Part shown: positions 64-63,150 of the stretch, one piece after another | How positions within the stretch are numbered: the stretch's first letter is position 1 | Layout of the letters: every line of letters starts with the position of its first letter | Origin: an uncultured bacterium | GTDB lineage: Bacteria > Margulisbacteria > WOR-1 > CAVSGV01 | Length of the DNA: 64,000 nucleotides | Direction: 5' to 3' | NCBI GenBank assembly: GCA_963699255.1 | Contig: OY969425.1 | Coordinates: 935,112-999,111, forward strand | Position numbers and translations under genes: made by a program | Notes under the pieces: model-generated | Databases searched by the model: none | The model's input: the letters and a program-made list of their open reading frames with translations, nothing else | What the model was told of the DNA's origin: nothing

Positions 64-756
64 CTAAGAGGTTTTACTGTTGATTTGATCAATCAACTTT
101 TGAATTTTTCCAATGCCAATAAAGTCATCAACATGTCCCTTAGCCTTTGCCCATTTCATTAGTGGCACCTTTACCTTACCTTTTTCATCTTGTTCTGCTA
201 TTTTATCGATATCATCCCAATAAGTCCCAACATAATAAAAAAGAACCTTCATATCATTTTTCAATCCTTCTTTCAAAAGAAGGCCATTTAAGATTGCGCT
301 TCTGATGCTGTTTGTATCTAAAAAGTTGCCCTTGAACTCAATGAATACAGCCGTACCCCCCTCTTTAGTTTTCAAATAACAATCTGCTCCAATGGTTGCT
401 TTTTCGTTATTTAACTTTATCTCCACATTCCTCCTGGCCTGTTGAATAAGACCACAGCGGGCACTGACTAGCATACCAATCATTGTTTCCATGTAGTGGA
501 CATGGGCATTTGCTCTTCCTGATTTCATGTTAAGCCAATATTCCTGTATCTTATTAAGAACCTCTTCTTTCCACTTTTTTACCTCATTGCTATCCTCTTC
601 AAGAATTTCCAGGCTTTTTCTATACCATGGATAAGCGCAAGCCGTACTGGCATTGCTTGGGGTACATTTTGGCTTCAGGCATTCAATATTCATTTCCTTG
701 AAATTTGGATCATTGATAATCCGGACATTGTTGCAGGGTTTTACATTGTTTAACAT
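64..756 (-). CDS. Hypothetical protein, possible PD-(D/E)xK-type nuclease
   Basis: 230-aa ORF; motif GADCY...TAVFIEFKG fits a D-x14-E-x-K nuclease signature. Assignment by eye only. Confidence 0.35.
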   Translation of the reverse strand: MLNNVKPCNNVRIINDPNFKEMNIECLKPKCTPSNASTACAYPWYRKSLEILEEDSNEVKKWKEEVLNKIQEYWLNMKSGRANAHVHYMETMIGMLVSARCGLIQQARRNVEIKLNNEKATIGADCYLKTKEGGTAVFIEFKGNFLDTNSIRSAILNGLLLKEGLKNDMKVLFYYVGTYWDDIDKIAEQDEKGKVKVPLMKWAKAKGHVDDFIGIGKIQKLIDQINSKTS

Positions 757-776
757 GAGTTATAATATTCGAAGTA

Positions 777-1133
777 TTACGAACCGCCGATGTCGCGAAT
801 GGCCTTGCTTAGTGAAGTCTGCTTAAATGCTCCAAACATATTCCCATAAAAATTATGGCCCCATTCTTTCCATTGTTCTGTATTTTTACAACTGAGGCCG
901 AGATTGTCCAGATAGCTTTGAGGAATCCTAAGGCCAAATTCAATGATATCTTTTAGTACTATTATATCTTTTTGAAATTGATCGGGGTTTTCGTCTGGAT
1001 CCGCGAATCTATTGCGAGATACGTCTCTAATAATATCTATTAGGCGTGAGATATCATCACAGGTATATTCCCCGACATTGAAATTCTCGCTTATTTTCAA
1101 GAGAGCTTTGGCTTGTTCATCATTGAAATCCAT
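777..1133 (-). CDS. Hypothetical protein
   Basis: 118-aa ORF co-directional with and 20 nt from the upstream gene; no recognisable motif. Confidence 0.4.
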   Translation of the reverse strand: MDFNDEQAKALLKISENFNVGEYTCDDISRLIDIIRDVSRNRFADPDENPDQFQKDIIVLKDIIEFGLRIPQSYLDNLGLSCKNTEQWKEWGHNFYGNMFGAFKQTSLSKAIRDIGGS

Positions 1134-1213
1134 ATGTTTACCCCCTTAATTATTCTAATGGATACTATCGGTTGTGTTCGGGAGTATAACACACAGATAC
1201 AATAGGCTCCATC

Positions 1214-1465
1214 ATGAAAGCAATGTCATTCTATAAACCGGACAAAGCACTGCTTAAGGCGATAGCGCAAGAATTCAAATCAACACGGCTAAAGAGAGGA
1301 TTAACAATTGAGGAACTTTCTGATCTTTGCGGTTTACATGAGAAGTATCTGCAGACTATAGAAAGAAATCACAGAAATATATCCTTATCAGTATTTGTCC
1401 AGATAGCGAAAGCTCTTAAAGTATCGCCATCTAAGCTGCTTGAGAAGACACTAACAGCTAGATAG
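1214..1465 (+). CDS. XRE-family helix-turn-helix transcriptional regulator
   Basis: 83 aa; LTIEELSDLCGLHEKYLQTIERNHRNISLSVFVQIAKALKVSPSKLL is a classic Cro/C1-type HTH; divergent from the neighbouring element genes. Confidence 0.75.
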   Translation: MKAMSFYKPDKALLKAIAQEFKSTRLKRGLTIEELSDLCGLHEKYLQTIERNHRNISLSVFVQIAKALKVSPSKLLEKTLTAR

Positions 1466-1476
1466 CTTCTGACAAT

Positions 1477-1800
1477 CTATATCATCCCTCTGGCATCCAT
1501 CACATCTTTTAATGTCTTATCATGAAAATGTAGGTCTCTTTCAATCCCCAGACCGAATTTACCCCTGAAGCTCTCAAGCTCATCAAGACTGAATGTGCCT
1601 AACTCTGCCATCTCTGGGTCTCCCAGGTTGGCATATCCAAAAAATATCCGGTCAACAGGATCATATTCAACAGCATACCATCGACCCCCGCCTGTAGGAT
1701 TAAAGAACTTCACTATAACCTTTATATCCTCTGCATGTTTCTGAGAGGTATCTCCCTGAGCTTCAAAGGCTTCTAATAGTTCCTTAGTTATCAGTTTCAC
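1477..1800 (-). CDS. DUF2958-family protein (plasmid/phage associated)
   Basis: 107 aa; MKLITKELLEAF...IKVIVKFFNPTGGGRWYAVEYDP...RIFFGYANLGDPEMAELGTFSLDELE matches the conserved DUF2958 pattern as I recall it. Confidence 0.6.
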   Translation of the reverse strand: MKLITKELLEAFEAQGDTSQKHAEDIKVIVKFFNPTGGGRWYAVEYDPVDRIFFGYANLGDPEMAELGTFSLDELESFRGKFGLGIERDLHFHDKTLKDVMDARGMI

Positions 1801-2149
1801 TGTTATCGGTCTCCTTCAGTGAGTTCTTGTAAAACTTTGTATCCAGCATTTGCATGTTATCGGCCACAACCTCCGCAAATGACCGCTTCTCTCCGTTCTT
1901 CTCATATTTGCGTATCGTCAGCTTGCCCTCGATAGCCACAGGCTTACCTTTTTTCAGGTATTCCCCACATACCTTCGCAAGACCTCTCCAGGCAACGACA
2001 TTGATGAAATCCACTTCCTTCTCTCCGTTCTTGCCGGATCTTTCTACTGCAAGAGCAAATCTTGCCACAGGAATCTCGTTAGTGGTGTATCTGACCTCTG
2101 GATCCGCAGCAAGCCGCCCCACAAGGATAGTTCTGTTTAAAGATATCAT
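1784..2149 (-). CDS. ssb: Single-stranded DNA-binding protein
   Basis: 121 aa; N-terminus MISLNRTILVGRLAADPEVRYTTNEIPVARFALAVER is the canonical SSB OB-fold start; strong RBS GGGAGGTG upstream. Confidence 0.8.
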   Translation of the reverse strand: MISLNRTILVGRLAADPEVRYTTNEIPVARFALAVERSGKNGEKEVDFINVVAWRGLAKVCGEYLKKGKPVAIEGKLTIRKYEKNGEKRSFAEVVADNMQMLDTKFYKNSLKETDNSETDN

Positions 2150-2301
2150 TTTTTCACCTCCCTTATTTCTTGATCAAAACAATAAACATCATCGGGCTGA
2201 TCTCTATAAGCAAGCTCTTCTTTTGCTTTTTGTTTGCTCTGAGCTTCGATAATATATTTTTGAACGGTGGTTTCAATTATTTCATATTTCTTCATTTTCA
2301 T
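2146..2301 (-). CDS. Small hypothetical protein (51 aa) translationally coupled to ssb
   Basis: Not in the ORF track (below 60 aa). ATG preceded by RBS GGGGGTG; its stop TGA overlaps the ssb ATG (ATGA). Translation MKMKKYEIIETTVQKYIIEAQSKQKAKEELAYRDQPDDVYCFDQEIREVKK. Confidence 0.3.
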   Translation of the reverse strand: MKMKKYEIIETTVQKYIIEAQSKQKAKEELAYRDQPDDVYCFDQEIREVKK

Positions 2302-2332
2302 TTTATTTCACCCCCTTTCTTAGCTCTAACAA

Positions 2333-2557
2333 CTAAATAAGGCTATTTACTGTTTCCACCATGCTTTGAAGTTTCTCTGTTAGCTCCTCGAACTTCTTTC
2401 GCTTGTGTTTATCTTGGCCTTTCTGGTTCAGCTTTGCCTCCACCTTTACAAGATAATCGTAGAGAGCAAAGTGAAGAATCCCTAGTTCATCAAAGCCAAG
2501 CTCCACAGTCACATGATTTCTGTCAACCTTTAACAGCTTCATGTCTGCCTCCGACAA
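2333..2557 (-). CDS. Hypothetical protein
   Basis: 74-aa ORF in the same minus-strand gene string as ssb. Confidence 0.35.
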   Translation of the reverse strand: MSEADMKLLKVDRNHVTVELGFDELGILHFALYDYLVKVEAKLNQKGQDKHKRKKFEELTEKLQSMVETVNSLI

Positions 2558-2782
2558 TCATCATATTTCCTAAATGTAACTCGAATATTTGTCGTTAACG
2601 CAACAGATACTCATTTAGGTCTTCCACATCCCACACTTAAACCACTTGTCCAGAGCCACTTGTCCAGAAAGTGAGAATGTATCCGCAGTTTTCGCCGGCA
2701 CTGTAAATATTTTCATCTCTTACTCTCCTGTACAATCGATTACTTTGATTGCCCCTCATGTGGATCCTGCCCTTTTATGCGA

Positions 2783-3004
2783 CTATACCTGCGTTCCACA
2801 ATAGGCACAGACAATGACCGCTGGTTCAAAATCTTCACACGTCGTGTCTCCTACCTCCGCTATAAGTCGGCCGTCAACCTTGTGGAATTCGACCTCTTGC
2901 GTCACATGCGCAAAACCTCGTTCAAAGAACTTTTTTGTGTTCCCGCAGTTTTGACACGTGTAAACTGCCTCACTTTTCTTAAGCTCTTGCTTGGTTTCCA
3001 ACAT
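2783..3004 (-). CDS. Zinc-ribbon protein (two CxxC pairs)
   Basis: CQNCG...CAYCG motifs; likely start is the ATG at 3004 (M7 of the tracked ORF, which begins on GTG at 3022) preceded by RBS AAGGGGGTG. Confidence 0.5.
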   Translation of the reverse strand: MLETKQELKKSEAVYTCQNCGNTKKFFERGFAHVTQEVEFHKVDGRLIAEVGDTTCEDFEPAVIVCAYCGTQV

Positions 3005-3141
3005 CTTCACCCCCTTGTACACTTATTTTAATTTATTTTATTTGTATTCAAATCGCCTCACTCCGCTTAAGTTCCTGCTTGGCTTTCAGCATGTTTACCC
3101 TCTTGAATTTTTTATTTTATTTATTTTTCAAGCTCAATACG
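2968..3141. repeat. Tandem imperfect duplication (2 x ~87 bp) of the RBS/start region of the zinc-ribbon gene
   Basis: Unit 1 (2968-3055) and unit 2 (3056-3141) align at roughly 75% identity; unit 2 keeps an RBS-like AGAGGGT, an ATG and 14 codons before a stop. Confidence 0.6.
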
Positions 3142-3726
3142 CATATTCACACTCGAACCTCTGCCAGTTATCTCCTGCAACCATCCTAAATCGAGCTGTA
3201 CGCGATGTTCCTGCCGCAACAATATCCTTTTATATCCTGCGCCCCATCTCATCTTACAATCGATTTTCCACGGCCCCTATACCTTGTCCTGAATGTTTTC
3301 GCGTTCTTCTGATCATTTGCGCTCTTACTGACCGATTGCCCCTTTATAAAAATCCAGAAGGAACCTGTGATTTTCACCTGGGCCACGACAAATATTTTTC
3401 TGGAACGGCCCAGTAGTCTTAATATTTTATTTGCGGCTCCTTTCTTCAAACCTGATATTCATGCTCGAACCCCTCCAAAGTATCGCCGTATCCCGCTCCA
3501 AACAGATGTTTACGCTGGTTATAGCATCGAACAATATATTTACCTTCTCTCGAAACTAACGCCTTGTATAACTGATTTTTCAAGACCCAATACCTTGCTT
3601 TTCTCTTACTTTCACGGAAGAAGGCCTCTTTTCTTGTTCATGAACAAGTATCAAGGCCTATTATCATCCTTAGTTATTAACCAATGTATTAATACCCTTT
3701 TACATACTTTGTATTTATAACTTAAA

Positions 3727-4584
3727 CTATTTAATGTCCTCATTTAAATATTTTAAAGATTTAGGCCTTGCCGGTGGGATAGGGATCACTCTGGAAACTT
3801 TTGTGGCTATATGTTTATTAAAATGTTGCTCTCCCGTCTTACAGAGAATCAGTCCATGTTCAACAAGAGAGGTCAGAGTTGGGGTTATAATAGGCACGGA
3901 TAAATGAGCGTGTGTTGCAATAAGGGCTTGTGAAGCGATTATGAGATTGCTCGGTTTCAACCCCCTCTTTTTTTCAAGCTCAACGATTCCGCAGTACGCC
4001 TTGAGCTCGGCCAATTTCAGATACTTCCACCATCCCATATAGAAAAAAGTCGGTATACCCATTCCCCGCATTGATCTTTCTCCATTATTTTTCGGGAAGT
4101 GGCTTTTATAGTAAGGGCAGTTGTCTTTGCCTAGAATACAGTACTGGGATAGCGGGCCGTTACATCCATAAACCTTATAGCCTCCTTTAATTTTTTGGCC
4201 CTCAGCTCCCTGCTTATATGCTGATGGGACACGATACTTCAATTTTTGTGCATCTAATTTTTCTGGTAACCTCGAATTCCATTCATTTAACTCTTGCAAG
4301 GCCTTTTCCTCAGGAAATCCATACTCCCTAAATTCTGTTGCGAGAATGAAGGCTGAATCATTTCTTGAGCCCTTAACTGCCCCAGTTGCCCAAAGGTATG
4401 CCACACAAGGCTTAATGACATCACAGGACACATTCAGTACATTAGACATATTTCGAACATGCTGTAATGCCTCAATCTCAGTATCGGTGTTTATGGTCTT
4501 TTCAATCATTGTTTCTCTAGCTTTCATTACAAGGACAATCCTTTTTACGATTTTTCTCTCATTCGGGTTTGCATGTATTGACAT
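3727..4584 (-). CDS. Replication-associated protein with PriCT-1-like (primase C-terminal) domain
   Basis: 285 aa; GSRNDSAFILATEFREYGFPEEKALQELNEWNSRLPEKLDAQKLKYRVPSAYK resembles the PriCT_1 helical domain of plasmid/phage primase-replicases. Confidence 0.5.
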   Translation of the reverse strand: MSIHANPNERKIVKRIVLVMKARETMIEKTINTDTEIEALQHVRNMSNVLNVSCDVIKPCVAYLWATGAVKGSRNDSAFILATEFREYGFPEEKALQELNEWNSRLPEKLDAQKLKYRVPSAYKQGAEGQKIKGGYKVYGCNGPLSQYCILGKDNCPYYKSHFPKNNGERSMRGMGIPTFFYMGWWKYLKLAELKAYCGIVELEKKRGLKPSNLIIASQALIATHAHLSVPIITPTLTSLVEHGLILCKTGEQHFNKHIATKVSRVIPIPPARPKSLKYLNEDIK

Positions 4585-4936
4585 GTGTCAACCCAATATA
4601 GAAAGTTCACAGCCTTCGTTGTATGATAAAAATCTAGGCACCAACCTCAAGCCACTTACAGGCGGTTGTTATGCCTCTTATTATTTATAATATGTCCGGG
4701 CTGGGTACCAATACCTTTTCTCTCAATGAACCTCCTCCCGTGTCTCAGTTACCTAACACTTTTCATCACCCTGTCACTGAGGCATTATTTTTCGCCTCCC
4801 TCTTTTTACGTGTGAATAGTGCTTCCTTGATTTGGGCTAAGCGCTTGTGTCAAGGTTGCGAATTTCGACATCGATATCTTCCAGTTCCCCTTTTGAATAA
4901 ATCGTGTCATAACAACTTCCTCCCCGTATGATTATT

Positions 4937-5392
4937 TTAGTGATGGTGGAAGTTCCCCCTATCAATTCCCCTTAAAAAGTAATCGTTTTTATCACGGATT
5001 ATCCACTTGAATGCAAAATCCTCGGCTATAGCTATGTCATCTTCTTCTCCAATTTCAACTTTTTTAATATTTTCACCGGATATCATTCCAGGTAAATATG
5101 CCAATATCATCATTTCCTCTTCATTATCTTGTTGACCAGATAAATATTTTTGAGCCTTAAGTAAGACACCTGCCAATTTAGCCCGATCAAACACCGAAGC
5201 AAAAGGATACTCGGCGTAAATGTTATCTTGTACATAATATTTGTTTTCTATTATCGCTTCATTCAGGGTTTTACCATTATCCATTCTTATTAATACGTCC
5301 ATCAAAGTATTAAAAGCATATTCCCCCAAAGACCCTACATATTCTTTTGCCCCGTCTTCGTAAATCACATAGATGTCTTCCATTTCAACCAT
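4937..5392 (-). CDS. Hypothetical acidic protein
   Basis: 151-aa ORF directly downstream of the ParB-like gene on the same strand. Confidence 0.45.
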   Translation of the reverse strand: MVEMEDIYVIYEDGAKEYVGSLGEYAFNTLMDVLIRMDNGKTLNEAIIENKYYVQDNIYAEYPFASVFDRAKLAGVLLKAQKYLSGQQDNEEEMMILAYLPGMISGENIKKVEIGEEDDIAIAEDFAFKWIIRDKNDYFLRGIDRGNFHHH

Positions 5393-5414
5393 CTCCTTTG
5401 TTCACACCTATTAT

Positions 5415-6722
5415 TCAGCGCCCTCTTTTATGCACCCCTTTATCTTTACGTTTGATTAGCGCTTCCCTGATTAGCCCTAGGCGCGAAATGATTGTGCCAA
5501 GGTTTTGAATTTCAACATCGATAGCTTCTGATCCCCTCAGCAAATCGGGTATTATAATTTGCAAGTCTTGGTCGATAATCATGTCAAGAAACCTACAGAT
5601 CGAGCCGATTGCTTTTCTATAATTCTGATAAACCCAATCTTCGGAAGTTTTACGTGTGGTTTCCTTATCAGCTCCCGGCATTAACATCTGTGAATCTTTT
5701 TGACGGATAGCTCGAATGGCATTCACAACATTACTATAGCTACATTTCTCAAAGTCCATATTCTCCGCCAGCTTTATGCGTTGATCAGGGTTAAGTGATG
5801 TTAATTGACTCACGGCTTCTGCTGGCACCTGACCCTCTCGTATCAATTTCTGCCAATAAGCATCTAAGTCCAGTACTGCGAGCTTGTTTACGAGTGCTAG
5901 TTCAGATAATCCGGTGACTTTCATTGCTTTTTCGACCTCCAAACCATCGTTTGCAAAATTTGCAAGCTCAGTCCCGCCTTCGGTGGTTACCTCATCCTTA
6001 CCCAATGCCTGACAAATGCCCCTTGCTTCCTCAATAGGCGTAAGGTTATCCCTATGCATATTTTCGTGAATGGAAACTTGTTTTGCCTTTTCGTCAGAAT
6101 AATTCTGAACTATGGCCTGTATCGTTGTTAAGCCAGCGATTCCATGTGCCCTGAACCTTCTCTCGCCAGCAACAACCTCATAGCCATCCTTATTTGGCCT
6201 TACGATTATTGGCTCGATAAGCCCAATCCCTTTAATAGACTCCGCCAACTCCCGCAAACTGGTCTCAGTAAAGCTTCTCCGAGGTTGGACATCGCACGGC
6301 GTAATCTTTGATATGGGGATTTCATGAACTTGGGCGATGACCTTTTCATTGTCATTATGGGACTGCGGATGCAACTCCTTTTCAATGGCGCTCACAGTCA
6401 ACTTGTCTTCAATGATACGCTTAACCCATTTGTCCCTTTCAGCCTGATCTTCTAATGTAAGCAACAGCCGGCATTTGGCCACCCCCAAATGTTGCATCGA
6501 TTCAACATCAAGTTGCTCTACTACACGAATAAGCTCGTAGGCGTTGGAACGATGCATATCGACATCCTTTTCAAGATATTCCTCGAACGTCTTGTATTTT
6601 TCCTTATACAAGCGGCCGTCTCGTATCTGCTTCAACCTTATCCCAATCTCCCAGCTATTTTTCCGGATATCGTTCCGCAAACTTACAATCTCATCAGTCA
6701 ATTTCTTTAACATTGCCATCAT
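5415..6722 (-). CDS. ParB/Spo0J-like nuclease-domain protein
   Basis: 435 aa; IEPIIVRPNKDGYEVVAGERRFRAHGIAGLTTIQAIV is the ParB N-terminal box. Confidence 0.75.
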   Translation of the reverse strand: MMAMLKKLTDEIVSLRNDIRKNSWEIGIRLKQIRDGRLYKEKYKTFEEYLEKDVDMHRSNAYELIRVVEQLDVESMQHLGVAKCRLLLTLEDQAERDKWVKRIIEDKLTVSAIEKELHPQSHNDNEKVIAQVHEIPISKITPCDVQPRRSFTETSLRELAESIKGIGLIEPIIVRPNKDGYEVVAGERRFRAHGIAGLTTIQAIVQNYSDEKAKQVSIHENMHRDNLTPIEEARGICQALGKDEVTTEGGTELANFANDGLEVEKAMKVTGLSELALVNKLAVLDLDAYWQKLIREGQVPAEAVSQLTSLNPDQRIKLAENMDFEKCSYSNVVNAIRAIRQKDSQMLMPGADKETTRKTSEDWVYQNYRKAIGSICRFLDMIIDQDLQIIIPDLLRGSEAIDVEIQNLGTIISRLGLIREALIKRKDKGVHKRGR

Positions 6723-7085
6723 CTCCTTTTCTTGCTGAACCCGCTCACCTGATTTGCGTTAACCTTTAACCGCCTCCCGTATCTATATCAGGATTTGTGG
6801 CGAGGAATTTCTTCGGTAATTCTTTTGATGTTTCCGTATGGCTTAGGGACAGTGGAAATACCACATTAATTGAAACTGAAGAGAATCATAACGATGCTAA
6901 TGAGTAGGAGAAGTGATTGACAGTAATTATTTCCCAGCCACCCGTGGTACACCCAACAGCCAAGAATCTGTGTAATATCATGGGCTATTTGGACACCATA
7001 GAAAGAAGCCGAAACCCTTTATTTATAAAAGAATCTCGGCTTTTTCTTGTTAATATGCTACAATTTAATAACTGTAGCGGGCAGT

Positions 7086-7237
<152 letters not shown>

Positions 7238-7348
7238 TTTTAAATATTATCTGCTTTAGCAGTAAAAAAGAAGGCTTTTAAGAGATTAATCTTAAAGTTA
7301 AAGGTCTTTTTTGTTGCCATCTAACAAATATCTAATATATACATACAC

Positions 7349-11870: not shown

Positions 11871-11958
11871 AAATCCCTCCCCCGCTACCTCTTTTATGCT
11901 TCAGTTACGTAGTAGCCAAGGTTCTCCCGCCAAAGGCGGGAAAATCCTACCCCCGCTA
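11871..11958 (+). repeat. Composite att-like repeat copy B: variant 17-mer, 43-bp block, hairpin, 17-mer
   Basis: AAATCCCTCCCCCGCTA at 11871-11887, shared block at 11888-11930 (one or two mismatches to copy A), AAATCCTACCCCCGCTA at 11942-11958. Confidence 0.7.
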
Positions 11959-12025
11959 TTTAACATGATATCATCGAGGGGCGGATCTTAAGATCGTTCC
12001 GCTAAAGTCAAAGACCGCTTGTTTG

Positions 12026-15954: not shown

Positions 15955-16035
15955 TAGAGATCAGAGACTGGAGACCAGAGATCGGAATAAGATCCAGGAT
16001 TTCTGATTTCTAATCTCTGATCTCTAATCTCTAAG
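15955..16035. repeat. Low-complexity imperfect palindrome (AGAGATC / GATCTCT motifs)
   Basis: AGAGATCAGAGA at the left and its reverse complement TCTCTGATCTCT at the right; shares the 19-mer CTCTGATCTCTAATCTCT with 30805-30823. Confidence 0.6.
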
Positions 16036-16043: not shown

Positions 16044-16856
16044 ATGAACAAAAGCCCTGAACATAAATGGAACGCCGCCGACTACGCCGGTAATTCTTCG
16101 GCGCAGGCCAGGTGGGGGCGCGATCTTATCGCCAAACTCGAACTGCGGGGGGGCGAATCCGTCCTGGACATCGGCTGCGGCGACGGAAAGCTTACCGCCG
16201 CGCTTGCAAAGCAGCTTCCCAAAGGTTTCGTTCTGGGTGTGGATAATTCTATAGAGATGATCCGGTTTGCCAGGAAAAATTTCCCCTCTGATGGATTCCC
16301 CAACCTTTCTTTCAAGGTATGCGACGCGCGCAAGTTGAACTTTTCAAAAAAGTTCGACCTTGTGGTTTCTTTTTCCACTCTTCATTGGGTGAAAGACCAC
16401 ATGCCGGTACTCAAGAGAATTCTGCTCAGCCTTAAACCGGGAGGCAAGGCGCTCCTGCAGTTCGGAGGAAAAGGCAATGCCGCAGATATTTTAGCCGTTA
16501 CCGATGATGTCATTGCTGGCGGCAAATGGAAAAAACATTTCCGCCGTTTTATCTTTCCCTGGCATTTTTATGAGCCGAAAGAATACGGCGTTTGGGTAAA
16601 GGAGGCCGGTTTAAAGCCGAAGCGGATCGAGCTTGTTGAAAAAGACATGGTCCAGGAGGGCAAGGAAGGCCTTATCGGCTGGTGCAGGACGACGTGGCTG
16701 CCTTATGTCAGCCGCGTTCCGGCAGGTTTGCAGGATGAATTCCTGGCCGAGGTCGTTGATCGATATCTGGAGCGTTATCCGCTGGATGAAAACGGCCGCG
16801 CCCATGTTAAAATGCAGAGGCTGGAAGTGGAAGCATATAAAAAAAGTAAGAAGTGA
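16044..16856 (+). CDS. Class I SAM-dependent methyltransferase (Tam-like)
   Basis: W.AADY...Q..WGRDLI...VLDIGCGDGKLT pattern as in trans-aconitate methyltransferase-like enzymes. Confidence 0.7.
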   Translation: MNKSPEHKWNAADYAGNSSAQARWGRDLIAKLELRGGESVLDIGCGDGKLTAALAKQLPKGFVLGVDNSIEMIRFARKNFPSDGFPNLSFKVCDARKLNFSKKFDLVVSFSTLHWVKDHMPVLKRILLSLKPGGKALLQFGGKGNAADILAVTDDVIAGGKWKKHFRRFIFPWHFYEPKEYGVWVKEAGLKPKRIELVEKDMVQEGKEGLIGWCRTTWLPYVSRVPAGLQDEFLAEVVDRYLERYPLDENGRAHVKMQRLEVEAYKKSKK

Positions 16857-16884
16857 GAAGTTGAAAGGAAGAAGGAAATCGGTA

Positions 16885-17002
16885 CTTCTAACTTCTTCCT
16901 TCTCCCTTACCCCCTGTTCGCATCTCCCATCTCTCATCTCTTCTGTTGTCCCGATGTCCCGATCCGAAAGGCACCGTCTGGGAAATGAGAAAGATAGACT
17001 GA
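16885..17002 (+). repeat. Direct repeat L (~115 bp, pyrimidine-rich) flanking the ORF6N gene
   Basis: CTTCTAACTTCTTCC...CCCGATCCGAAAGGCACCGT(C/A)TGGGAAATGAGAAAGAT; roughly 85% identical to 17650-17759. Confidence 0.7.
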
Positions 17003-17005: not shown

Positions 17006-17530
17006 CTACTCTCTCCCTTTTAGAAACCCGATATTCTTGGCCGTACGGTCCGGCATCTCAATAAGCTCATTTATAGCATCAAACACAGCCTTGAACTGGC
17101 CGTCATATTTTCTCTCAAGCTCTTCGATCTTCCTCCTCAAACCCTCATGACTTGAAAGTAATACTCTCAATTTAGTGAATGTCCGCATGATCTGGATGTT
17201 CACCTGGATAGCTCTTTTGCTTCTCAGGACAGAGGAAAGCATTGCTATCCCCTGTTCGGTAAATGCGAAAGGTTCGGAACCTCCGAAATAAGACTTTGAT
17301 GGTATGCCAAAATGGCAGACCATCTGATCGATCTCTTTTTGGGTCAGAACAAACATGAAATCGTCGGGAAATCTGTCAATATTCCTTTTCACCTGTCTCT
17401 TAAGTTGAAAATTTTCAACCCCATAAAGCGCTGCCAGGTCCTTATCAAGCATTACTTTTTTGCCTCTGAACAGATAAATATTTTTCTCGATAACCTCATG
17501 CGGAACCAGCTCACTTGCCACATTGATCAC
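17006..17530 (-). CDS. ORF6N-domain protein (KilA-N-like, phage antirepressor family)
   Basis: FRGKKVMLDKDLAALYGVENFQLKRQVKRNIDRFPDDFMFVLTQKE is the ORF6N signature; a coiled-coil ORF6C-like tail follows. Confidence 0.75.
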   Translation of the reverse strand: MINVASELVPHEVIEKNIYLFRGKKVMLDKDLAALYGVENFQLKRQVKRNIDRFPDDFMFVLTQKEIDQMVCHFGIPSKSYFGGSEPFAFTEQGIAMLSSVLRSKRAIQVNIQIMRTFTKLRVLLSSHEGLRRKIEELERKYDGQFKAVFDAINELIEMPDRTAKNIGFLKGRE

Positions 17531-17649
17531 CCCGTGGATAGTAGCAGCAATTTTAATTCCGCATATTTTATTCGTATGTAGAGCAAAATCGTGTAGTTAT
17601 TTTTGACAAGAGTAGTAATTCCCGACAGCAGTTCAAATTATACTTATAA

Positions 17650-17759
17650 CTTCTAACTTCTTCCTTTTTCCTTGTCCCTTGCTCCCATCTCACATCTCTC
17701 ACCTCTTCTCCTATCCCGATCCGAAAGGCACCGTATGGGAAATGAGAAAGATCGATTGA
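17650..17759 (+). repeat. Direct repeat R (~110 bp), partner of 16885-17002
   Basis: Same sequence family and same orientation as repeat L on the other side of the ORF6N gene. Confidence 0.7.
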
Positions 17760-17866
17760 TTTTCTTACAGGCAGATATCGTTGCCGGGGAATGTGGATGA
17801 GAAGAAAGTGAAGATTGAGAGGAAAGGAAGTAAAATTATCATCAGATACAATAAAGCTGATTTGTT

Positions 17867-18412
17867 CTAAATATCCACCAAAATGATTTTAACTGGGACT
17901 GACGGGAAATGTCTTTCTAATCTTTCAATATCAAAAACCAGCTGTTCACCATATGACACGCCAGTCGACATATACTTTTGAAGGTTGTGACACGGAACGA
18001 TTTCCACTCCCACATTCGCTCTGTTTGCATTGAAAAAATATTGGAATTTTGCGAGGTCATAAAACATAAAGGGATATTTTCCAAACTGGACTTCAATTAG
18101 AACTTTATCTTTAACAAAATCCACCTGCTTAAATGCTCCGGGGATCTTGATTTTTGAATTTGGAATCGTAAGAACATATTGATCCTTTAATTCCCTAAAG
18201 CCTCTTTTATGGAATGCATCTTTAAACTTTTGATTTAGGTCTTTTGGGGAATAGAGTTTTACACCCATCATAGTTTTTTCTTTGCTTACTTTCGTTTTTG
18301 TAACTTTTGTTATACTTTTAATAACATCATTGATTTCTTTGTTAATAGCAGGAAAAGTAACTTGGAGTATTTCGCTTCCGCCTAAATGAGAATATTCGTA
18401 TACTTTTTTCAT
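17867..18412 (-). CDS. Type II restriction endonuclease, BglII/BstYI-like (probable)
   Basis: 181 aa; QVDFVKDKVLIEVQFGK gives D-x8-E-x-Q spacing like the BglII catalytic triad (from memory); 4-bp overlap with the adjacent methyltransferase. Confidence 0.5.
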   Translation of the reverse strand: MKKVYEYSHLGGSEILQVTFPAINKEINDVIKSITKVTKTKVSKEKTMMGVKLYSPKDLNQKFKDAFHKRGFRELKDQYVLTIPNSKIKIPGAFKQVDFVKDKVLIEVQFGKYPFMFYDLAKFQYFFNANRANVGVEIVPCHNLQKYMSTGVSYGEQLVFDIERLERHFPSVPVKIILVDI

Positions 18413-19344
18413 ACTGCCGCCAACTCTCTGTCTTTGTATCCTAACGGATATGCAAATTGAATGGTTTCAGCTGGAACTTTATATATCGGCTTATTCATCG
18501 GGCGTGTTTTGATCGTTCCCTCAAAAGTTTCTTTAATTCGCTTTTTTGATATCTGAATATACTCGGGCATTATTTCTGCACCTATCGCTCTTCGGTGATG
18601 CAGAAGCGCTGCCACGGCAGTCGTTCCGGTTCCGATGAAAGGATCAAGGACGAGATCATCTTTTCGTGTCATAGCCAGGATCAATCTTTCAATGAGTTCA
18701 ACGGGAAACTGACATGGATGTTGCGTCTTCTCAACATGATTGTTCTTTACGTTTGGAATGTTCCACAGATCACCCGGATTTTTCCCAAGAGGATTACAAG
18801 AGAGCTGCCCCTTTTTGGGCCCTTTAAAATACTTCTTTTGAGGATATTTCTGAGGGATCCTTATTGGATCAAGATTAAATACATAATCATCGCTTTTCGT
18901 GAACCATAAGACCGATTCGTATCGGCCTGAAAGTCTTTTAGAGCAATGCAGGCCATGCTCAAAATGCCAGATTATTCTGTTGCGCAACTTTAACCCGAGT
19001 GATTTAAATATGGGGTATAAAACTGTATCAAGCGGGACTACTTCGCATCTATCAACATAATTTCCAACCTCCCAGCAAATACTCCCGTTTGGCAACAGTG
19101 TTCGCACACATTCCCTGATAACTGATTCCTGGAACGAGAGATATCGATCCAATGAGGTTTTCTTCTCATATTTCTTCCCTATATTATAGGGTGGGGAGGT
19201 AACGATAAGCTGAATTTTTTTGTCCGGTATTTGTTTAAGCAGATCAAGGCAGTCACCTGGGTAAAGGACGACCTTTGCATTTTCAGAGTAATTTTCGCAT
19301 ATTATTTTTGTCATATCTGAACCTAAATTGTCCATATTATACAC
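18409..19344 (-). CDS. DNA methyltransferase, beta-class, probably N4-cytosine
   Basis: Motif IV TSPPYN (SPPY favours m4C) precedes motif I DPFIGTGTT near the C-terminus. Confidence 0.85.
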   Translation of the reverse strand: MYNMDNLGSDMTKIICENYSENAKVVLYPGDCLDLLKQIPDKKIQLIVTSPPYNIGKKYEKKTSLDRYLSFQESVIRECVRTLLPNGSICWEVGNYVDRCEVVPLDTVLYPIFKSLGLKLRNRIIWHFEHGLHCSKRLSGRYESVLWFTKSDDYVFNLDPIRIPQKYPQKKYFKGPKKGQLSCNPLGKNPGDLWNIPNVKNNHVEKTQHPCQFPVELIERLILAMTRKDDLVLDPFIGTGTTAVAALLHHRRAIGAEIMPEYIQISKKRIKETFEGTIKTRPMNKPIYKVPAETIQFAYPLGYKDRELAAV

Positions 19345-29013: not shown

Positions 29014-29177
29014 TAGTTTCACCCCCTTATTATGCGATCTTAACACGCATTGTATTACTAATGCATTAGATTAACATTAAAACGGGATTAGAACTTAATT
29101 AAAGCATTGAAGCGTGATATTTTCGGGTATAGTATATATGTAAGCGATAATATTGCCCGTTAAAGGAGGTAATTCAT

Positions 29178-29894
29178 ATGAATAAGCTTTTAAAGGATAT
29201 TTGTGAGAGGCGTTCTGACAGGGTGTTCTTTGATCCCGGTCGTCCTATAGCAAAGAAGGCCCTGGATCAGATACTTGAGGCGGCGCGCTGGGCGCCCACG
29301 GCCCACAACATGCAGAACTTCGAGCTGATAGTTGTTGACGATAAAAAGATACTCGGGGCCATCTCAAAGATAGAACGCCCGATGTCCGAAGCGTTCATCC
29401 GCGAGAATTATCCGCTGCTTTCTTTTTCAAAAGAGGAGCTCCTCAAAAGGAAAGTGGGGATACTGGGCACTACGTTCCCGCCGTCATGGAGGGATCCCGC
29501 AAAACTTGACGAAGCGGTCAAAGAAGCTACGCCGATGCCTCTCGGCGACCAGATCAAAAAAAGTGCCGTATTGCTTATCGTGGTCTATGACCCGGCAAGA
29601 AGAGCTCCGGCTTCTGAAGGCGATTTCCTGGGCCATATCAGCCTCGGCTGCATGACGGAGAACATGTGGATCATGGCTAATTCACTGGGGATCGGTTTCC
29701 ATATAGTCAGCACGGTGGGTTCCGATCCTGCGGAAAAAGAGGTAAAGGATATCCTGAACATCCCGAAAAACCTTAAGATAGTTTACGGGATACGCCTGGG
29801 GTATGTCGCGGGTAAAGCGGCCCAGCCGCTCAGGGTGCGCCGTGACATAAATGATTTTACATACCATAACAGGTACGGGAGCAAGGGGGAATAA
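29178..29894 (+). CDS. Nitroreductase-family protein
   Basis: RRSDRVFFDPGRPIAKKALDQILEAARWAPTAHNMQNFE is typical of NAD(P)H nitroreductases. Confidence 0.8.
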   Translation: MNKLLKDICERRSDRVFFDPGRPIAKKALDQILEAARWAPTAHNMQNFELIVVDDKKILGAISKIERPMSEAFIRENYPLLSFSKEELLKRKVGILGTTFPPSWRDPAKLDEAVKEATPMPLGDQIKKSAVLLIVVYDPARRAPASEGDFLGHISLGCMTENMWIMANSLGIGFHIVSTVGSDPAEKEVKDILNIPKNLKIVYGIRLGYVAGKAAQPLRVRRDINDFTYHNRYGSKGE

Positions 29895-29895
29895 T

Positions 29896-30651
29896 ATGAA
29901 CTTATCCGGCAATACGGTCCTGATAACCGGCGGAGCGACGGGGATCGGATATGCGATGGCGGAGGCGTTCCTTGAAGCCGGCAGCGAAGTCCTGATCTGC
30001 GGGCGCAGGGCGACCAGGCTGCGCGAAGCGCAAAAGAACCATCCCGAATTCCATAATAAAGTTTGCAACATTGCGGATGATAAGGATAGAAAGTCCCTTT
30101 TCGAGTGGGCGACGTCGAATTTCAGGGATCTGAACGTCCTTGTGAACAATGCCGGCATTCAGCGCGACATAGACCTGACAAAGGGCCTTTATGAGATCAC
30201 CTCGGGCGAAAACGAGATAAAGGTAAACCTGGAAGCGCCGATATATCTCTCCGCGCTGTTCATCCCGTTCCTGGCGAAAAAGAAAGGTGCGGCGATAATA
30301 AACGTATCATCCGGGCTTGGTTTTGTGCCGGCAGTCAAGATGCCGATATACAGCGCGACAAAAGCCGGCGTCCACGCTTACAGCATGGTCCTGAGGCAGC
30401 AGATGTTAAAGATCGGCATAAAAGTTTATGAAGTGATACCGCCGACGGTGGACAGCGAGCTGAACAAAGAAGGAAGGGCGAAGAGGCACATGCCGGCGCC
30501 GGAGCTTAAGCCGAAGGAATTCGTAGCCGCCGTAATGAAGGGGCTTCAGCAGGATGAACCAGAGATAGGTTACGGCATGTCGGCAGGGTTCAAGACCGCT
30601 TCAAGGGCCGATCTGGACAAGAGTTTTCAGATGATGAACAGCAGAATGTAA
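29896..30651 (+). CDS. Short-chain dehydrogenase/reductase (SDR)
   Basis: TGGATGIG cofactor motif, NNAG and catalytic YSATKAG; start moved to the ATG at 29896 with RBS AGGGGGA. Confidence 0.85.
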   Translation: MNLSGNTVLITGGATGIGYAMAEAFLEAGSEVLICGRRATRLREAQKNHPEFHNKVCNIADDKDRKSLFEWATSNFRDLNVLVNNAGIQRDIDLTKGLYEITSGENEIKVNLEAPIYLSALFIPFLAKKKGAAIINVSSGLGFVPAVKMPIYSATKAGVHAYSMVLRQQMLKIGIKVYEVIPPTVDSELNKEGRAKRHMPAPELKPKEFVAAVMKGLQQDEPEIGYGMSAGFKTASRADLDKSFQMMNSRM

Positions 30652-30654
30652 ATG

Positions 30655-30830
30655 ACAAAACCCAAATGTCAAAATCCAAATGAATCATTTAAAGCCAAAT
30701 AACAAACCGGTCTTTCGTGTTCATTTGGAATTGGTCATTCTGTCTTGATTCATTTGTCATTTGATATTGGACATTTGTCATTATGCCCCCGTTAATCTCT
30801 ATTCTCTGATCTCTAATCTCTGCTTTTGTG
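30655..30830. repeat. Intergenic low-complexity repeat element (TGTCATTTG / AAATGACAAA motifs plus CTCTGATCTCTAATCTCT)
   Basis: Imperfect palindrome; the segment at about 30745-30786 (GATTCATTTGTCATTTGATATTGGACATTTGTCATTA) recurs at about 63113-63149, and the 19-mer recurs at about 16013-16031. Confidence 0.65.
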
Positions 30831-30856
30831 ATAGAATTGCCTCCGAGGTGATATTA

Positions 30857-31084
30857 ATGAATAGATGGCAAATGGTTCTTATGTGGCTCGTAGGTTTATA
30901 TGTTTCGCTTATTATTTCCGATACCGGTCTGAAGCTCCTAATCCACGCCAAAAAGTCCGCGGAGACGCTTGAAACGGGATATCCTTTTACAGTGCTGGCT
31001 GGCACCGCCTGGGCTTATATTATTCCGATCATTATCATCGGGGCGTTGGTGTTCATAACTGTTAAGGAGAATAAGAAGAAATAA
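30857..31084 (+). CDS. Small membrane protein
   Basis: 75 aa from an internal ATG with RBS GAGGTGA; two hydrophobic segments. Confidence 0.35.
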   Translation: MNRWQMVLMWLVGLYVSLIISDTGLKLLIHAKKSAETLETGYPFTVLAGTAWAYIIPIIIIGALVFITVKENKKK

Positions 31085-31136
31085 TAATCAGATACAGTTT
31101 CTAGACTATACCTTGCGGCGAAAGGTGGTCAGCGTC

Positions 31137-31397
31137 TTATCCCTTTATTTTCCATCCTTGTTTCTTATAAGTCTCGACTATTATCCTCTCCGCGAAAAAA
31201 GGATATATCAGGATGGATATCCCGCCGGAAATGACGGCTAAAATGCCCGAAACCAGAGCGGAATCCCAGATCCCCAGATAGGCAAAATAGAACGGGCCGA
31301 ACAATAATGTCCAGAGAAAAACCCTGCTTAGCTTGACCTCTCTCTGCCCCGTCGGCGAAACCAGAACGACCGCCATAAGATATATTCTCCCCTGCAT
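31137..31397 (-). CDS. Small membrane protein
   Basis: 86-aa ORF with two or three hydrophobic helices. Confidence 0.4.
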   Translation of the reverse strand: MQGRIYLMAVVLVSPTGQREVKLSRVFLWTLLFGPFYFAYLGIWDSALVSGILAVISGGISILIYPFFAERIIVETYKKQGWKIKG

Positions 31398-34438: not shown

Positions 34439-34909
34439 TTAATATCCATTTCCGGACGGAGATGGCGCTACCGGAGGCACAGGAGCCGGAGCTTCGGGAG
34501 CCATAGGAGCCGAAGGAGCTGGAGCTTCCGGAGCCGCAGGCGCCACAGGAGCCGGAGCTTCCGGAGCCGGGGTCACAACAGGCGCCGCCGGTGCCGCCTC
34601 AGGAGCCGTTGCCGGAACTGTCGCAGTCGACGTCGGTACCACTACGGGAGCCGGAGCTGCTGCCGGCGCCACAGCCGGTGCCGCAGCCTTGACCGGTTTA
34701 GCCGCCTTTGGAGCCGCCTTTTTTACAGCCGCTTTCTTCACTACCCTCTTTATCTTTTTAACCTTTTTGACCTTTACAACTTTGGAAGCTTCGGTCGTGG
34801 ACGCTGGTTTCGTCATTGACGGAGCATTTACAACATCAGCCGAGGCCACAAGAGAGAACGCACCCAGGCAGAAAGCCGCCATAACAAGCCAACTTATCTT
34901 TTTCATCAT
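34439..34909 (-). CDS. Secreted protein with Lys-rich and Ala/Pro-rich low-complexity regions
   Basis: Signal peptide MMKKISWLVMAAFCLGAFSLVASA; KVKKVKKIKRVVKK block then APxAP repeats; the DNA is internally repetitive. Confidence 0.5.
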   Translation of the reverse strand: MMKKISWLVMAAFCLGAFSLVASADVVNAPSMTKPASTTEASKVVKVKKVKKIKRVVKKAAVKKAAPKAAKPVKAAAPAVAPAAAPAPVVVPTSTATVPATAPEAAPAAPVVTPAPEAPAPVAPAAPEAPAPSAPMAPEAPAPVPPVAPSPSGNGY

Positions 34910-35163
34910 TTAATTCACCTCCTTATCCTTATATTATTATTATGTAACGATCTTGATGCGTATTCTAATACTATCGCATTAGATTTACATTAAAACATAA
35001 TTAGAATTCGATTAATGCGAACAAGCCTGATATCGCCTTGTAATGCTCATAGAGCGATGATATTTTCCGTTGCGGCTTCATCCGTCCGTTATCCAAACAC
35101 TTGACGGAAATTAACGTATGTGATATAAATCTAACGTTTTAATGTTCTTGCGGAGGTAAAAAA

Positions 35164-46823: not shown

Positions 46824-48468
<1,645 letters not shown>

Positions 48469-51401: not shown

Positions 51402-52616
51402 ATGCCAACTTTTTCCTATAAAGCGAGAGACGAAACCGGCAAGCCGATCTCCAGCATAATGGAAGCGTCAAATAAAGATGCCCTTGCCTCAAGGCTGCAA
51501 AAGCTCAAGTACACGGTCATCTCAATTTCCGAAAAAGCGATCCCGTTCACAATAGATAAGTTCCTGCGAAGGTTCACCAGAGTAAAGATCAATGACCTGG
51601 TAATGTTCAATGTTCAACTTGCCAATATGATAGGCGCCGGGATCCCGTTGCCATCGAGCCTTATGACCCTTTCGGAACAGATCGAGAACGAAAGATTAAA
51701 GGATGCCGTAAGCGACGTATATAACGAGATAAAGGGAGGCCAGACCTTCGCTGACTCCTTAAAAAAACATCCCGATATTTTCCCCCCGCTTTTCACGAAC
51801 ATGATACATGCCGGCGAGGTCGCCGGGAACCTGGATGAAATATTGAACAGGCTGGCGACATTCGTGGAACACGAATCGGAGCTGAGGCAAAAAATAACCA
51901 CGGCGCTGTTTTATCCGATGATCCTTGCCGTATTCGGCACTGCCGTCGTGGTGTTAATTATTGTTACTATACTTCCCTCTTTCGCCAAAATATTCATCGA
52001 AGCTAATGTTCCGCTGCCGCTGCCGACAATGGTGCTTTATAACCTGAACCTGGTAATAAGGGCTTACTGGAAGCATATTATTGTGGCGATTGCAGCGCTG
52101 TTCTTTCTCGCGAGGTGGTACAAAAGGACCCCGACCGGGAAATATTACCTGGACAGCGCCATGCTCAATATCCCTGTCTGGGGAAAACTGATAAGGGAGT
52201 CAACGGTCGCCCGCCTCACAAGGACACTTGCGTCGCTCATTTCAGCCGGCGTCCCGATGCTGCAGTCACTTGAGGTAACGGAGAAGACAATAGACAACTC
52301 GATAATCTCCGGGGTTCTGAAGGACGTATATTCATCGGTAAGCAAAGGCGAGACTATTTCAGAACCGCTAAGGAAAAGCGGCCAGTTCCCGGCTATGCCC
52401 ATCCACATGATAGCCGTTGGTGAAGAAACCGGTGCACTGGATACAATGCTCAACAAAGTTGCCGATTATTACGACATGGAAACAGAATACAGCATAAAAA
52501 GGATCACTTCGCTTCTTGAGCCTATTTTTCTGGTCATTATCGGCGGTATGGTGGGATTCATTTTTGCATCTATACTGCTGCCCATATTCCAGATGGTGAA
52601 GACGCTGAAACACTAG
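51402..52616 (+). CDS. pilC: Type IV pilus inner-membrane platform protein (GspF/PilC family)
   Basis: Two-repeat GspF architecture with three TM segments; 404 aa. Confidence 0.9.
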   Translation: MPTFSYKARDETGKPISSIMEASNKDALASRLQKLKYTVISISEKAIPFTIDKFLRRFTRVKINDLVMFNVQLANMIGAGIPLPSSLMTLSEQIENERLKDAVSDVYNEIKGGQTFADSLKKHPDIFPPLFTNMIHAGEVAGNLDEILNRLATFVEHESELRQKITTALFYPMILAVFGTAVVVLIIVTILPSFAKIFIEANVPLPLPTMVLYNLNLVIRAYWKHIIVAIAALFFLARWYKRTPTGKYYLDSAMLNIPVWGKLIRESTVARLTRTLASLISAGVPMLQSLEVTEKTIDNSIISGVLKDVYSSVSKGETISEPLRKSGQFPAMPIHMIAVGEETGALDTMLNKVADYYDMETEYSIKRITSLLEPIFLVIIGGMVGFIFASILLPIFQMVKTLKH

Positions 52617-52768
52617 AGGAGCTAGAAGAACTAGATGTTAAGAGGTGAAAAGGTTGAGAAGAAAAAGAGGAAGGACCTCTTTACCTCTTCCACTTTTAGC
52701 TCCCCTAGCTCTTCTAATTCTTGCGTATTATTATTACGGTAGTATAATGTTTTTCGTCTCTGGTACAT

Positions 52769-54381: not shown

Positions 54382-54384
54382 AAT

Positions 54385-54545
54385 TTCCAATGACCAATCC
54401 CAAATAAATACCAATTAATTTGCAATTACCAATTTGACAATTGACCGCTAAGTACAAAAGCGCACAATTTGTCTTATTTCATTGACTAATTGGACATTGG
54501 TCATTAATTTGACATTTGACACTGGAAATTGGTAATTGATTTTCC
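54385..54545. repeat. Low-complexity intergenic repeat (CCAAT / ATTGG and TTGACA motifs)
   Basis: CCAATGACCAATCC...CAATTACCAATTTGACAATTGACC...TTGGACATTGGTCATTAATTTGACATTTGACACTGGAAATTGGTAATTG with inverted symmetry. Confidence 0.55.
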
Positions 54546-63025: not shown

Positions 63026-63029
63026 ATAA

Positions 63030-63150
63030 TTTCAAAATCCAAATGACAAAGCTCAAAGGAATCTATTAAATCCAAATCAAACAAAAACATTTCCCTTGAT
63101 TTGTCATTCTCAGATTCATTTGTCATTTGATATTTGTCATTTGTCATTAC
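63030..63150. repeat. Second copy of the TGTCATTTG-type intergenic repeat
   Basis: GATTCATTTGTCATTTGATATTTGTCATTTGTCATTA at about 63113-63149 nearly matches 30745-30786; it overlaps the last codons and stop of the substrate-binding gene. Confidence 0.65.

Follow-up and report, generated by a model that had tools for sequence, protein, structure and literature searches.

A hairpin repeat behind an SDR gene and its copies

The subject of this analysis is a hairpin repeat in a 64-kb stretch of DNA (64,000 nucleotides (nt), hereafter the window) from an uncultured bacterium. Copy 1 of the repeat was located between two co-directional plus-strand genes, with its onset at the TAA stop codon of the adh_short gene for a short-chain dehydrogenase/reductase (SDR, 29851-30651) and its end 70 nt before an open reading frame (ORF) of 75 amino acids (aa). 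A palindromic element of AAATGACAAA / TTTGTCATTT words had been predicted behind the SDR gene from the letters alone, and inverted-repeat analysis bore this out with two arms of 37 nt that are 78% complementary, terminal inverted repeats being present. The predicted fold had a minimum free energy (MFE) of -37.5 kcal/mol (z = -3.4). An element does lie in the predicted range (30655-30830), but its true span is 30649-30785, and the tail of that range (30793-30821) is a different array.

A family profile was compiled from two window copies and 29 look-alikes from other metagenome-assembled genomes (MAGs), and searching with nhmmer gave exactly three copies in the window (copies 1 to 3, Table 1), in agreement with a dispersed repeat. 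Copy 2 had already been recognized and proved real, but the third copy at 54382-54539 had been missed. The copies are 124-158 nt long, and no ORF is confined to them, so that the repeat is non-coding. Their termini, TAATGACAAA and TTTGTCATTA, are conserved and are reverse complements of each other. The prediction would have fallen had there been neither additional copies nor conserved ends, and both are present. All hairpin copies were predicted to fold into long structures with z of -3 to -5.8. The window contains TTTGTCATT 10 times, with an expectation of 0.91, and none of 100 shuffled sequences reached 10.

Each arm is a tandem run of heptamers with four constant and three variable bases, the pattern being CAAA-N3 in the 5' arm and N3-TTTG in the 3' arm. 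With Tandem Repeats Finder, period 7 (or 14) was obtained for every arm (period 7 at 30750-30782, 63116-63148, 54489-54532 and elsewhere). This 7-nt periodicity is the key anatomical feature and was overlooked in the original prediction.

The 37-mer GATTCATTTGTCATTTGATATTGGACATTTGTCATTA is exact at 30747-30783 and recurs with 2 mismatches at 63113-63149, where none is expected by chance, and AAAATCCAAATGA was confirmed in copy 1 and copy 2 by direct reading. The near-identity noted earlier for this 3' part therefore holds, but the homology of the two copies is full-length and includes the non-palindromic centre (identity of 80% with the copies in the same orientation, over about 135 columns, and of 75% with one of them inverted). 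Copies 1 and 2 match in the order of their variant heptamers and in the non-periodic centre GAATC-TTAAA-CCAAAT...ATT-GTCATTCT. Their T-rich arms are identical at 35 of 37 positions; stronger conservation of the T-rich arm was dropped as a family feature, since the asymmetry was not seen in other genomes.

Copy 2 is part of an ABC operon on the minus strand, where it separates the gene for a solute-binding protein, whose stop codon (63137-63139) falls within the copy, from the permease gene (start 63025). The fold of its transcribed strand gave -33.2 kcal/mol (z of -3.8 to -4.0). Copies 1 and 2 have the same DNA orientation and are opposite relative to transcription, i.e., there is no fixed orientation. 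Copy 3 (inverted-repeat score 22.4, arms of 70 nt) directly follows the canonical intrinsic terminator of a pilin-like gene and precedes a pseudopilin gene. An association with a particular gene class, which had been raised earlier, was not found among these neighbours (SDR, ABC peptide transporter and pilus genes).

Orthologous sites in relatives

Loci of relatives (numbered with L below) were reached through individual proteins, and L218 through its H+-PPase gene. L130, L131 and L132 have an empty copy-2 site: their binding-protein and permease genes share an ATGA overlap (...AAAGAAATGAAAAAATAT...) with zero intergenic DNA. The permease of L130 has 97% aa identity to that of the window (82-90% nt identity in coding DNA), and those of L131 and L132 have 91%. 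At the window junction about 120 extra nt are present, and the C-terminus of the binding protein reads VYIKSNDK* in place of VYIKK*; the whole element is present or absent, and the junction is otherwise conserved to the base. In the one clean pair of filled and empty sites, ATGA is seen at the left and the right junction, but as a part of the element's own heptamer, and the left flank reads GTA versus A. The ancestral site already had AAATGA. In the L122-L129 group (88% aa identity), the same junction carries an unrelated 150-nt hairpin of other heptamers (-53.5 kcal/mol, z -5.6).

The copy-3 site is empty in L131 and L217, which have the terminator alone, and in L130 and L216 it holds a strongly diverged, decayed hairpin (family profile E = 1e-3). 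For copy 1, L218 retains the SDR gene (87% identical) and the 75-aa ORF (84%). Its homology ends exactly at the SDR stop codon and restarts 33 nt before the 75-aa ORF; three other genes and a different, pyrimidine-rich heptamer array lie between, the array being upstream of the 75-aa ORF at the place that matches 30793-30821. In L213 and L214, which carry homologues of a permease/P-II fusion, synteny begins only at window position 31579, past copy 1.

Because copies are absent from these sites, or replaced by a different or decayed hairpin, they are lineage-specific gains, by which the repeat has recently colonised three gene junctions. Resident copies lose similarity at roughly the rate of unconstrained DNA and keep their hairpin potential and period 7.

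The repeat and its class in other genomes

The pattern AAATGACAAA-N60-90-CATTTGTCATTTG was scanned over 596 Gb and found in at least 119 contigs, against a chance expectation of about 0.5 (equal base use) to a few (about 5, if A+T-rich). The matches listed were all hairpins with heptamer arms, and came from Omnitrophota, Planctomycetota, Acidobacteriota, Verrucomicrobiota, Patescibacteria, Bacteroidota, Chloroflexota, Desulfobacterota and other phyla; the complete genome of Ca. Velamenicoccus archaeovorus (Omnitrophota) was also among them. Elements of the Omnitrophota type have the architecture of the window copies and the end ...CATTTGTCATTTG-N3TTTG-N2ATTTGTCATT, and they align over the full length at about 70-75% identity. 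Single MAGs contain multi-copy families with conserved non-repetitive centres or flanks, which is consistent with amplification. The loci with pattern matches also hold 57 heptamer hairpins of quite different words, some of them G+C-rich. In control loci (654 kb), which were metagenome homologues of the SDR protein (<=71% identity) from unrelated soil and peat bacteria, 0 heptamer hairpins were found among 90 inverted repeats.

The gene context of the class was 110 co-directional, 21 divergent and 16 convergent, near the background of adjacent gene pairs. Elements fill intergenic gaps at a median of 7 nt from the upstream stop codon, which often lies inside the first arm. Among 46 hairpins with a clear bias that were collected independently of the pattern, the first arm was purine-rich in 38 and pyrimidine-rich in 8, with the same polarity on both strands. 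All three reading frames are closed in 33-42% of cases when the arms are read inward, compared with 6-14% when they are read outward and 1% for ordinary inverted repeats; in the window's own copies, not all three frames are closed. Matches in viral contigs (1, 0 and 1) were too few for arm polarity to be tested.

No element followed the gene at the loci of SDR-protein homologues in the metagenome scan, no match to the element was obtained in curated plasmid and phage collections, and no paper on its sequence was found in the open literature library.

Some individual loci of the class were also recorded. A viral contig of IMG/VR (L002, 5780-5990) carries a heptamer hairpin of AAATCCN/AAATGAC type, and such a contig is a possible route for spread between hosts. 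In the Planctomycetaceae MAG D1_Bin_10 (L013, L020, L032, L083, L101 and L116), highly conserved (AAATGAC)4-5 arms bracket variable inserts, the centres being G+C-rich, about 70 nt long and identical in 35% of columns. In a Planctomycetota MAG (L065, 4275-4533), inverted (GGGGACT)n and (AGTCCCC)n arrays lie 185 nt apart; this heptamer is presumably that of the cyanobacterial STRR1 (CCCCAGT).

Further heptamer hairpins in the window

At least five further intergenic hairpins of the same build, made of other words, were found in the window (Table 1). An inverted-repeat finder gave 13 matches in the window against about 3.4 in shuffled sequence, and when the gap list was combined with the output of the repeat finders, about 8 of 36 intergenic gaps of at least 50 nt were filled by heptamer arrays.

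Table 1. Positions of the repeat copies and of other heptamer arrays in the window
Feature	Position	Strand	Description
Copy 1, TGTCATT-type hairpin repeat	30649-30785	.	137-nt imperfect hairpin; nhmmer E = 6e-22
Copy 1, 5' arm	30651-30687		A-rich: AAATGAC, AAAACCC, AAATGTC, AAAATCC...
Copy 1, centre	30688-30745		Non-palindromic
Copy 1, 3' arm	30746-30782		T-rich: TCATTTG x ~5
Copy 2	63027-63150	+ (DNA orientation, as copy 1)	nhmmer E = 7e-18
Copy 3, diverged family member	54382-54539	.	CAATGAC / AATTGGT words; nhmmer E = 4e-9
Solo (AATCTCT)4 heptamer array	30793-30821	+	Separate family, without inverted partner nearby
Hairpin, AGAGATC / GATCTCT words	15955-16032		Fills the gap between PEGA-domain gene and methyltransferase gene; MFE -39.3, z -5.8
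Hairpin of the heptamer class	16844-16901		
Hairpin of the heptamer class	17678-17830		
Hairpin, AATCGNT words	48400-48458		Between prepilin peptidase and enolase genes
Hairpin, purine-rich then pyrimidine-rich arm	52614-52716		Between T2SSF and T2SSE (PilT-like) genes

Two of these hairpins were compared with the corresponding sites of relatives and are likewise lineage-specific. The hairpin at 48400-48458 is absent from L216 (40-nt gap) and from L217 (37-nt gap). On the same strand, the short ancestral segment between the prepilin peptidase and enolase genes is TTCGGAAC in L216 (9961-10000) and GTTCCGAA in L217 (9964-10000), and the window has both TTCGGAAC and GTTCCGAA as the arms of its hairpin. 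Since the segments of both relatives are arms of the window hairpin, a local inverted duplication is suggested at this site. The hairpin at 52614-52716 has a 12-bp outer stem (CTAGAGGAGCTA...TAGCTCCNCTAG) in common with L130 (19998-20198), but in L130 the interior has about double the length and does not align; a short stem-loop only is present at this site in L217. Downstream of this hairpin, a promoter-like site TTGCGT-N16-TATAAT is also kept in L130.

The solo array at 30793-30821 matches the 3' arm (16006-16032) of the hairpin at 15955-16032 with 93% identity. The former lies just upstream of the 75-aa ORF and the latter just upstream of the start codon of the methyltransferase gene; arrays of this (AATCTCT)4 type may be CU-rich leader arrays.

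The hairpins at 16844-16901 and 17678-17830 are part of a region with an ORF6N-domain gene (17006-17530, minus strand) between direct repeats of about 120 nt (16884-17002 and 17649-17759, 83-93% identical). Both repeats consist of pyrimidine-rich heptamers, to which purine-rich arms at 16844-16880 and 17795-17835 are the partners, and a BglII-like restriction-modification pair (17867-19344) follows next. The segment 16840-17835 has the look of a small mobile cassette set within heptamer hairpins.

Comparison with known elements

When the whole window was scanned against Rfam at gathering scores, tRNA-Leu alone passed, and a permissive scan of 30400-31000 gave chance-level matches only (E of 0.57 and 5.2). 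An intrinsic (Rho-independent) terminator was rejected for the copies, because no site with a G+C-rich stem, a loop of 3-8 nt and a U tract overlaps any of them. Integron attC sites are co-oriented, one after each cassette, have RYYYAAC / GTTRRRY cores and are accompanied by an intI gene. The copies stand in housekeeping operons 9-32 kb apart, end in TAATGAC / GTCATTA and have no integrase among 50 window ORFs scanned, and the attC reading was discarded. CRISPR and small-RNA readings were ruled out by the anatomy.

The element resembles the bacterial miniature inverted-repeat transposable elements (MITEs; Correia/NEMIS, ERIC, RUP and the cyanobacterial Nezha) as defined by Delihas 2011 (PMC3184786), in being shorter than 200 nt, non-coding, equipped with inverted termini, foldable into a long stem-loop and dispersed intergenically. 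It also shares with them presence or absence among relatives and the ability to fuse to the 3' end of an ORF and alter its C-terminus. In contrast to MITEs, a clean target-site duplication was not found in the copy-2 pair, nor a cognate insertion sequence or transposase among 50 window ORFs; its arms are tandem heptamer arrays and not unique terminal inverted repeats, and the interior of resident copies is remodelled as repeat units are gained and lost.

Repetitive extragenic palindromic (REP) sequences, bacterial interspersed mosaic elements (BIMEs) and REPINs, i.e., REP doublets forming hairpins, are mobilised by REP-associated tyrosine transposases (RAYTs; Bertels and Rainey 2011, PMC3116915). 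Like a REPIN, the element is an inverted doublet in extragenic DNA, about 100-150 nt long and folding into a hairpin, and it is situated at gene ends and inside operons (e.g., after the binding-protein gene), where it could plausibly affect mRNA; REPINs lack a target-site duplication, and no unambiguous one was seen here in the copy-2 pair. In contrast to REP sequences, its arms are A+T-rich, 7-nt periodic and not individually palindromic, and lack the GTAG/CGTC tag; a RAYT (Y1_Tnp) match, as would belong to a REPIN, was not found among the 50 window ORFs.

Short tandemly repeated repetitive (STRR) heptanucleotide sequences are known from the heterocystous cyanobacteria Calothrix and Nostoc. 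Heptamer repeats have also been described in Xanthomonas (GGGAATC, with occasional inverted pairs; PMC4692102) and in Beggiatoaceae (TAACTGA; PMC4679880). The element has in common with heptanucleotide repeats its intergenic tandem heptamers, the turnover of length and sequence between close relatives at conserved positions, and inverted pairs able to form stem-loops, which are occasional in those repeats. The inverted-array hairpin is the rule here, whereas in STRR, GGGAATC and TAACTGA repeats it is the exception. Also unlike those repeats, words are mixed within an array (N3-TTTG), and a unit of about 135 nt with a shared non-repetitive centre is dispersed. The dominant word is TTTGTCA and not TTGGTCA, which we take to be STRR2 and which occurs once each in copies 1 and 3. 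The host also differs from those of STRR sequences in being non-cyanobacterial, the nearest named homologues belonging to Margulisiibacteriota/Saganbacteria/WOR-1 (H+-PPase 80-84%, enolase 80%). This hairpin-element organisation is not what papers on STRR-type repeats describe.

Origin, mobility and possible role

On balance, the element is probably a non-autonomous, dispersed hairpin repeat of the MITE/REPIN kind, about 125-160 nt long, with heptamer arms and a placement at gene ends. New copies would derive from existing ones, either through transposition in trans or through copying by template switch where there is microhomology, e.g., AAATGA; such descent would explain why a family consensus persists and individual insertions decay. 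Resident hairpins would then be remodelled and lengthened by replication slippage in the heptamer arrays and by intrastrand template switching between the arms. When transcribed, the element would form a long AU-rich stem-loop between genes. At copy 2, the insertion would have broken the ancestral ATGA translational coupling of the binding-protein and permease genes and given the binding protein its new C-terminus. This copy probably acts like an intercistronic REP stem-loop, guarding the 3' end of the upstream message and lowering expression of the downstream cistron, or it may just as well be merely tolerated. For copy 2 such a stem-loop role is plausible, and an unrelated hairpin was acquired at the same junction in another lineage.

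Several results weigh against this reading. An unambiguous target-site duplication was not seen in the one clean filled/empty pair (copy 2). Transposase, integrase and Y1/RAYT genes were absent, as judged with Pfam, from the 50 window ORFs scanned, and none of these enzymes was encoded between the paired arrays of other loci (inverted arrays 0.3-4.5 kb apart). Composite or autonomous elements were considered for these array pairs and rejected, since the pairs enclose only ordinary genes flanked by neighbouring hairpins. Copies 1 and 2 scored 78 bits against each other and 75-85 bits against elements of other genomes, and their longest common word was 22 nt against a family median of 18. The two copies are thus no closer than cross-genome pairs, and part of their similarity could come from a restricted heptamer vocabulary; their long exact words are unexceptional in the family and are therefore not evidence of a very recent common origin. 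The hairpin at 48400-48458 looks grown from local sequence, and in the class as a whole there was no terminator-like avoidance of divergent gaps, which are occupied at roughly background frequency. At the RNA level, folding of the sense strand was only marginally better (57 vs 49, p = 0.03), and no covariation was detected among 15 family members, an analysis that is uninformative because all predicted pairs are invariant. Nothing in the evidence points beyond a small mobile or self-growing repeat.

The self-growing alternative supposes that nothing was transposed and that the hairpins are palindromic heptanucleotide microsatellites seeded in situ by local palindromes or AAATGA-like words. Slippage would expand them, intrastrand template switching (quasipalindrome correction) would keep the arms complementary, and likeness between loci would reflect a vocabulary of favoured heptamers. 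This origin accords with arms whose tandem heptamers are of many unrelated words, within this genome as well as in others, with the presence of AAATGA at the ancestral copy-2 site, with the lack of both a clear target-site duplication and a transposase in the material just described, and with within-genome copies being no closer than cross-genome pairs. Heptamer repeats are over-represented in bacteria, for which polymerase slippage has been proposed as the cause (PMC4692102). The interior at 52614-52716 is remodelled, and doubled in L130, with the outer stem kept, and the enolase-leader hairpin was seemingly built on a segment that has opposite orientations in L216 and L217; judged by this interior remodelling and possible inverted duplication, in-situ processes evidently operate too, and pure in-situ growth is retained as a serious rival. 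It is nevertheless rated as rather unlikely. Copies 1 and 2 agree in the order of variant heptamers and in a non-periodic centre, other MAGs contain multi-copy families with conserved non-repetitive centres and flanks, and the copy-2 junction has about 120 nt in the window and 0 in a relative that is 97% identical in permease protein, without an intermediate. Moreover, the family consensus is kept across genomes, whereas orthologous copies decay.

The hairpins could instead be primarily selected RNA elements, namely intercistronic or 3'-untranslated stem-loops that set mRNA decay or partial termination, of which the structure is selected and the sequence drifts. REP stem-loops act at such positions in enterobacterial ABC operons, and the binding-protein/permease junction has long hairpins of unrelated sequence in two lineages (the window and L122-L129). 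Hairpin potential outlives complete sequence turnover, 38 of the 46 hairpins with a clear bias begin with a purine-rich arm and end with a U-rich one, and sense-strand folding has its slight advantage. Effects of REP sequences on mRNA stability have been reviewed (PMC3184786). Against selection on RNA, two of four lineages have no hairpin at the copy-2 junction and their genes overlap, divergent placement is at background frequency, both strands fold about equally well, a terminator consensus scan found no G+C-rich stem with a U tract, a covariation signal is absent with predicted pairs invariant, and Rfam gave no match. Selection on RNA as the primary explanation is rated as rather unlikely.

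A very improbable reading is that the arms are protein-binding arrays, either through TTGACA-like promoter or regulator cores or as an (N3TTTG)n landing pad for cold-shock or S1-domain OB-fold proteins, each covering one heptamer, that would melt the hairpin. The recurrence of a conserved tetranucleotide at exact 7-nt spacing across many genomes suits it, as does the report that CspB of B. subtilis binds heptamer repeats with one protein per heptamer, such proteins having been proposed for TAACTGA repeats (PMC4679880). Copy 1 contains one promoter-like match on the minus strand, TTGACA-16-TACATT. Promoter-like sites are, however, not in excess: a scan of 30300-31200 gave 3 sites, all on the minus strand, against 1.4 +/- 1.2 expected, and a scan around copy 2 gave 0. 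The promoter/-35 reading was rejected on these consensus scans, and the idea that the TTGACA/TGTCAA cores double as binding sites found no support, the conserved core across related elements being CAAA/TTTG at 7-nt spacing and not TTGACA. No link to a gene class was seen, and the heptamers of other hairpins of the class are wholly different in sequence and in some cases G+C-rich, so that no single sequence-specific binder fits.

At the level of the class, a bolder proposal is that inverted heptamer-array hairpins constitute a distinct class of bacterial DNA element in many phyla, not derived from insertion sequences, that is produced or spread by a common mechanism measuring 7 nt and is kept as bidirectional gene-end caps, the window element being one case; this is rated unlikely. 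Candidate measures of 7 nt would be the slippage register of a polymerase or primase, or an OB-fold protein covering one heptamer, and a cap would work by the purine-rich first arm closing incoming frames on both strands, followed by the stem-loop. The window element itself is real and ordinary-looking, and the surprise is at the level of the little-described class, in hairpins that are widespread in uncultivated phyla and turn over fast at gene junctions.

The probable MITE/REPIN-like repeat accounts for three intergenic regions of the window, one of which is an insertion that would have broken a translationally coupled binding-protein/permease junction and altered the end of the binding protein. 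Masking or annotation of such elements is needed, lest they be taken for regulatory sites or small RNAs. The excess of heptamer repeats in bacteria has been on record since 2007, and heptamer hairpins that come and go at orthologous junctions offer a concrete system for asking why seven. The class also poses the question of whether such hairpins are selfish, mutationally self-generating, or set expression ratios within operons.

Other repeats in the window

The regions 7074-7251 and 11871-11972 include part of a tRNA, namely its 3' half with the CAU anticodon loop, T arm and acceptor end, which was called by neither ARAGORN nor Rfam. The tRNA 3' end AAATCCTACCCCCGCTA is present in four copies, which form att-like direct repeats on the borders of a 4.7-kb segment. 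This segment contains genes for DUF134, DUF2099, a metallo-beta-lactamase fold, ArsR, thioredoxin and a methyltransferase, and genes for SSB, a PriCT_1 primase and ParB lie to its left (64-6722); the region is probably an integrated element. A similar TCCCGC...GCGGGA repeat stands beside a PF05635 (23S_rRNA_IVP) gene in L122, L124 and L130.

An A+T-rich segment of 86 nt occurs at 29035-29120 and 34948-35033 (76% identical), upstream of a nitroreductase gene (29178) and of a carbohydrate-binding-like gene (35164), respectively, and may be a shared regulatory leader. A GGAGCN-type repeat with a period of 9/33 nt (34464-34577) lies in a minus-strand ORF of 156 aa (34439-34909) without a Pfam match, which would encode a low-complexity protein rich in Gly/Ala/Ser/Pro.

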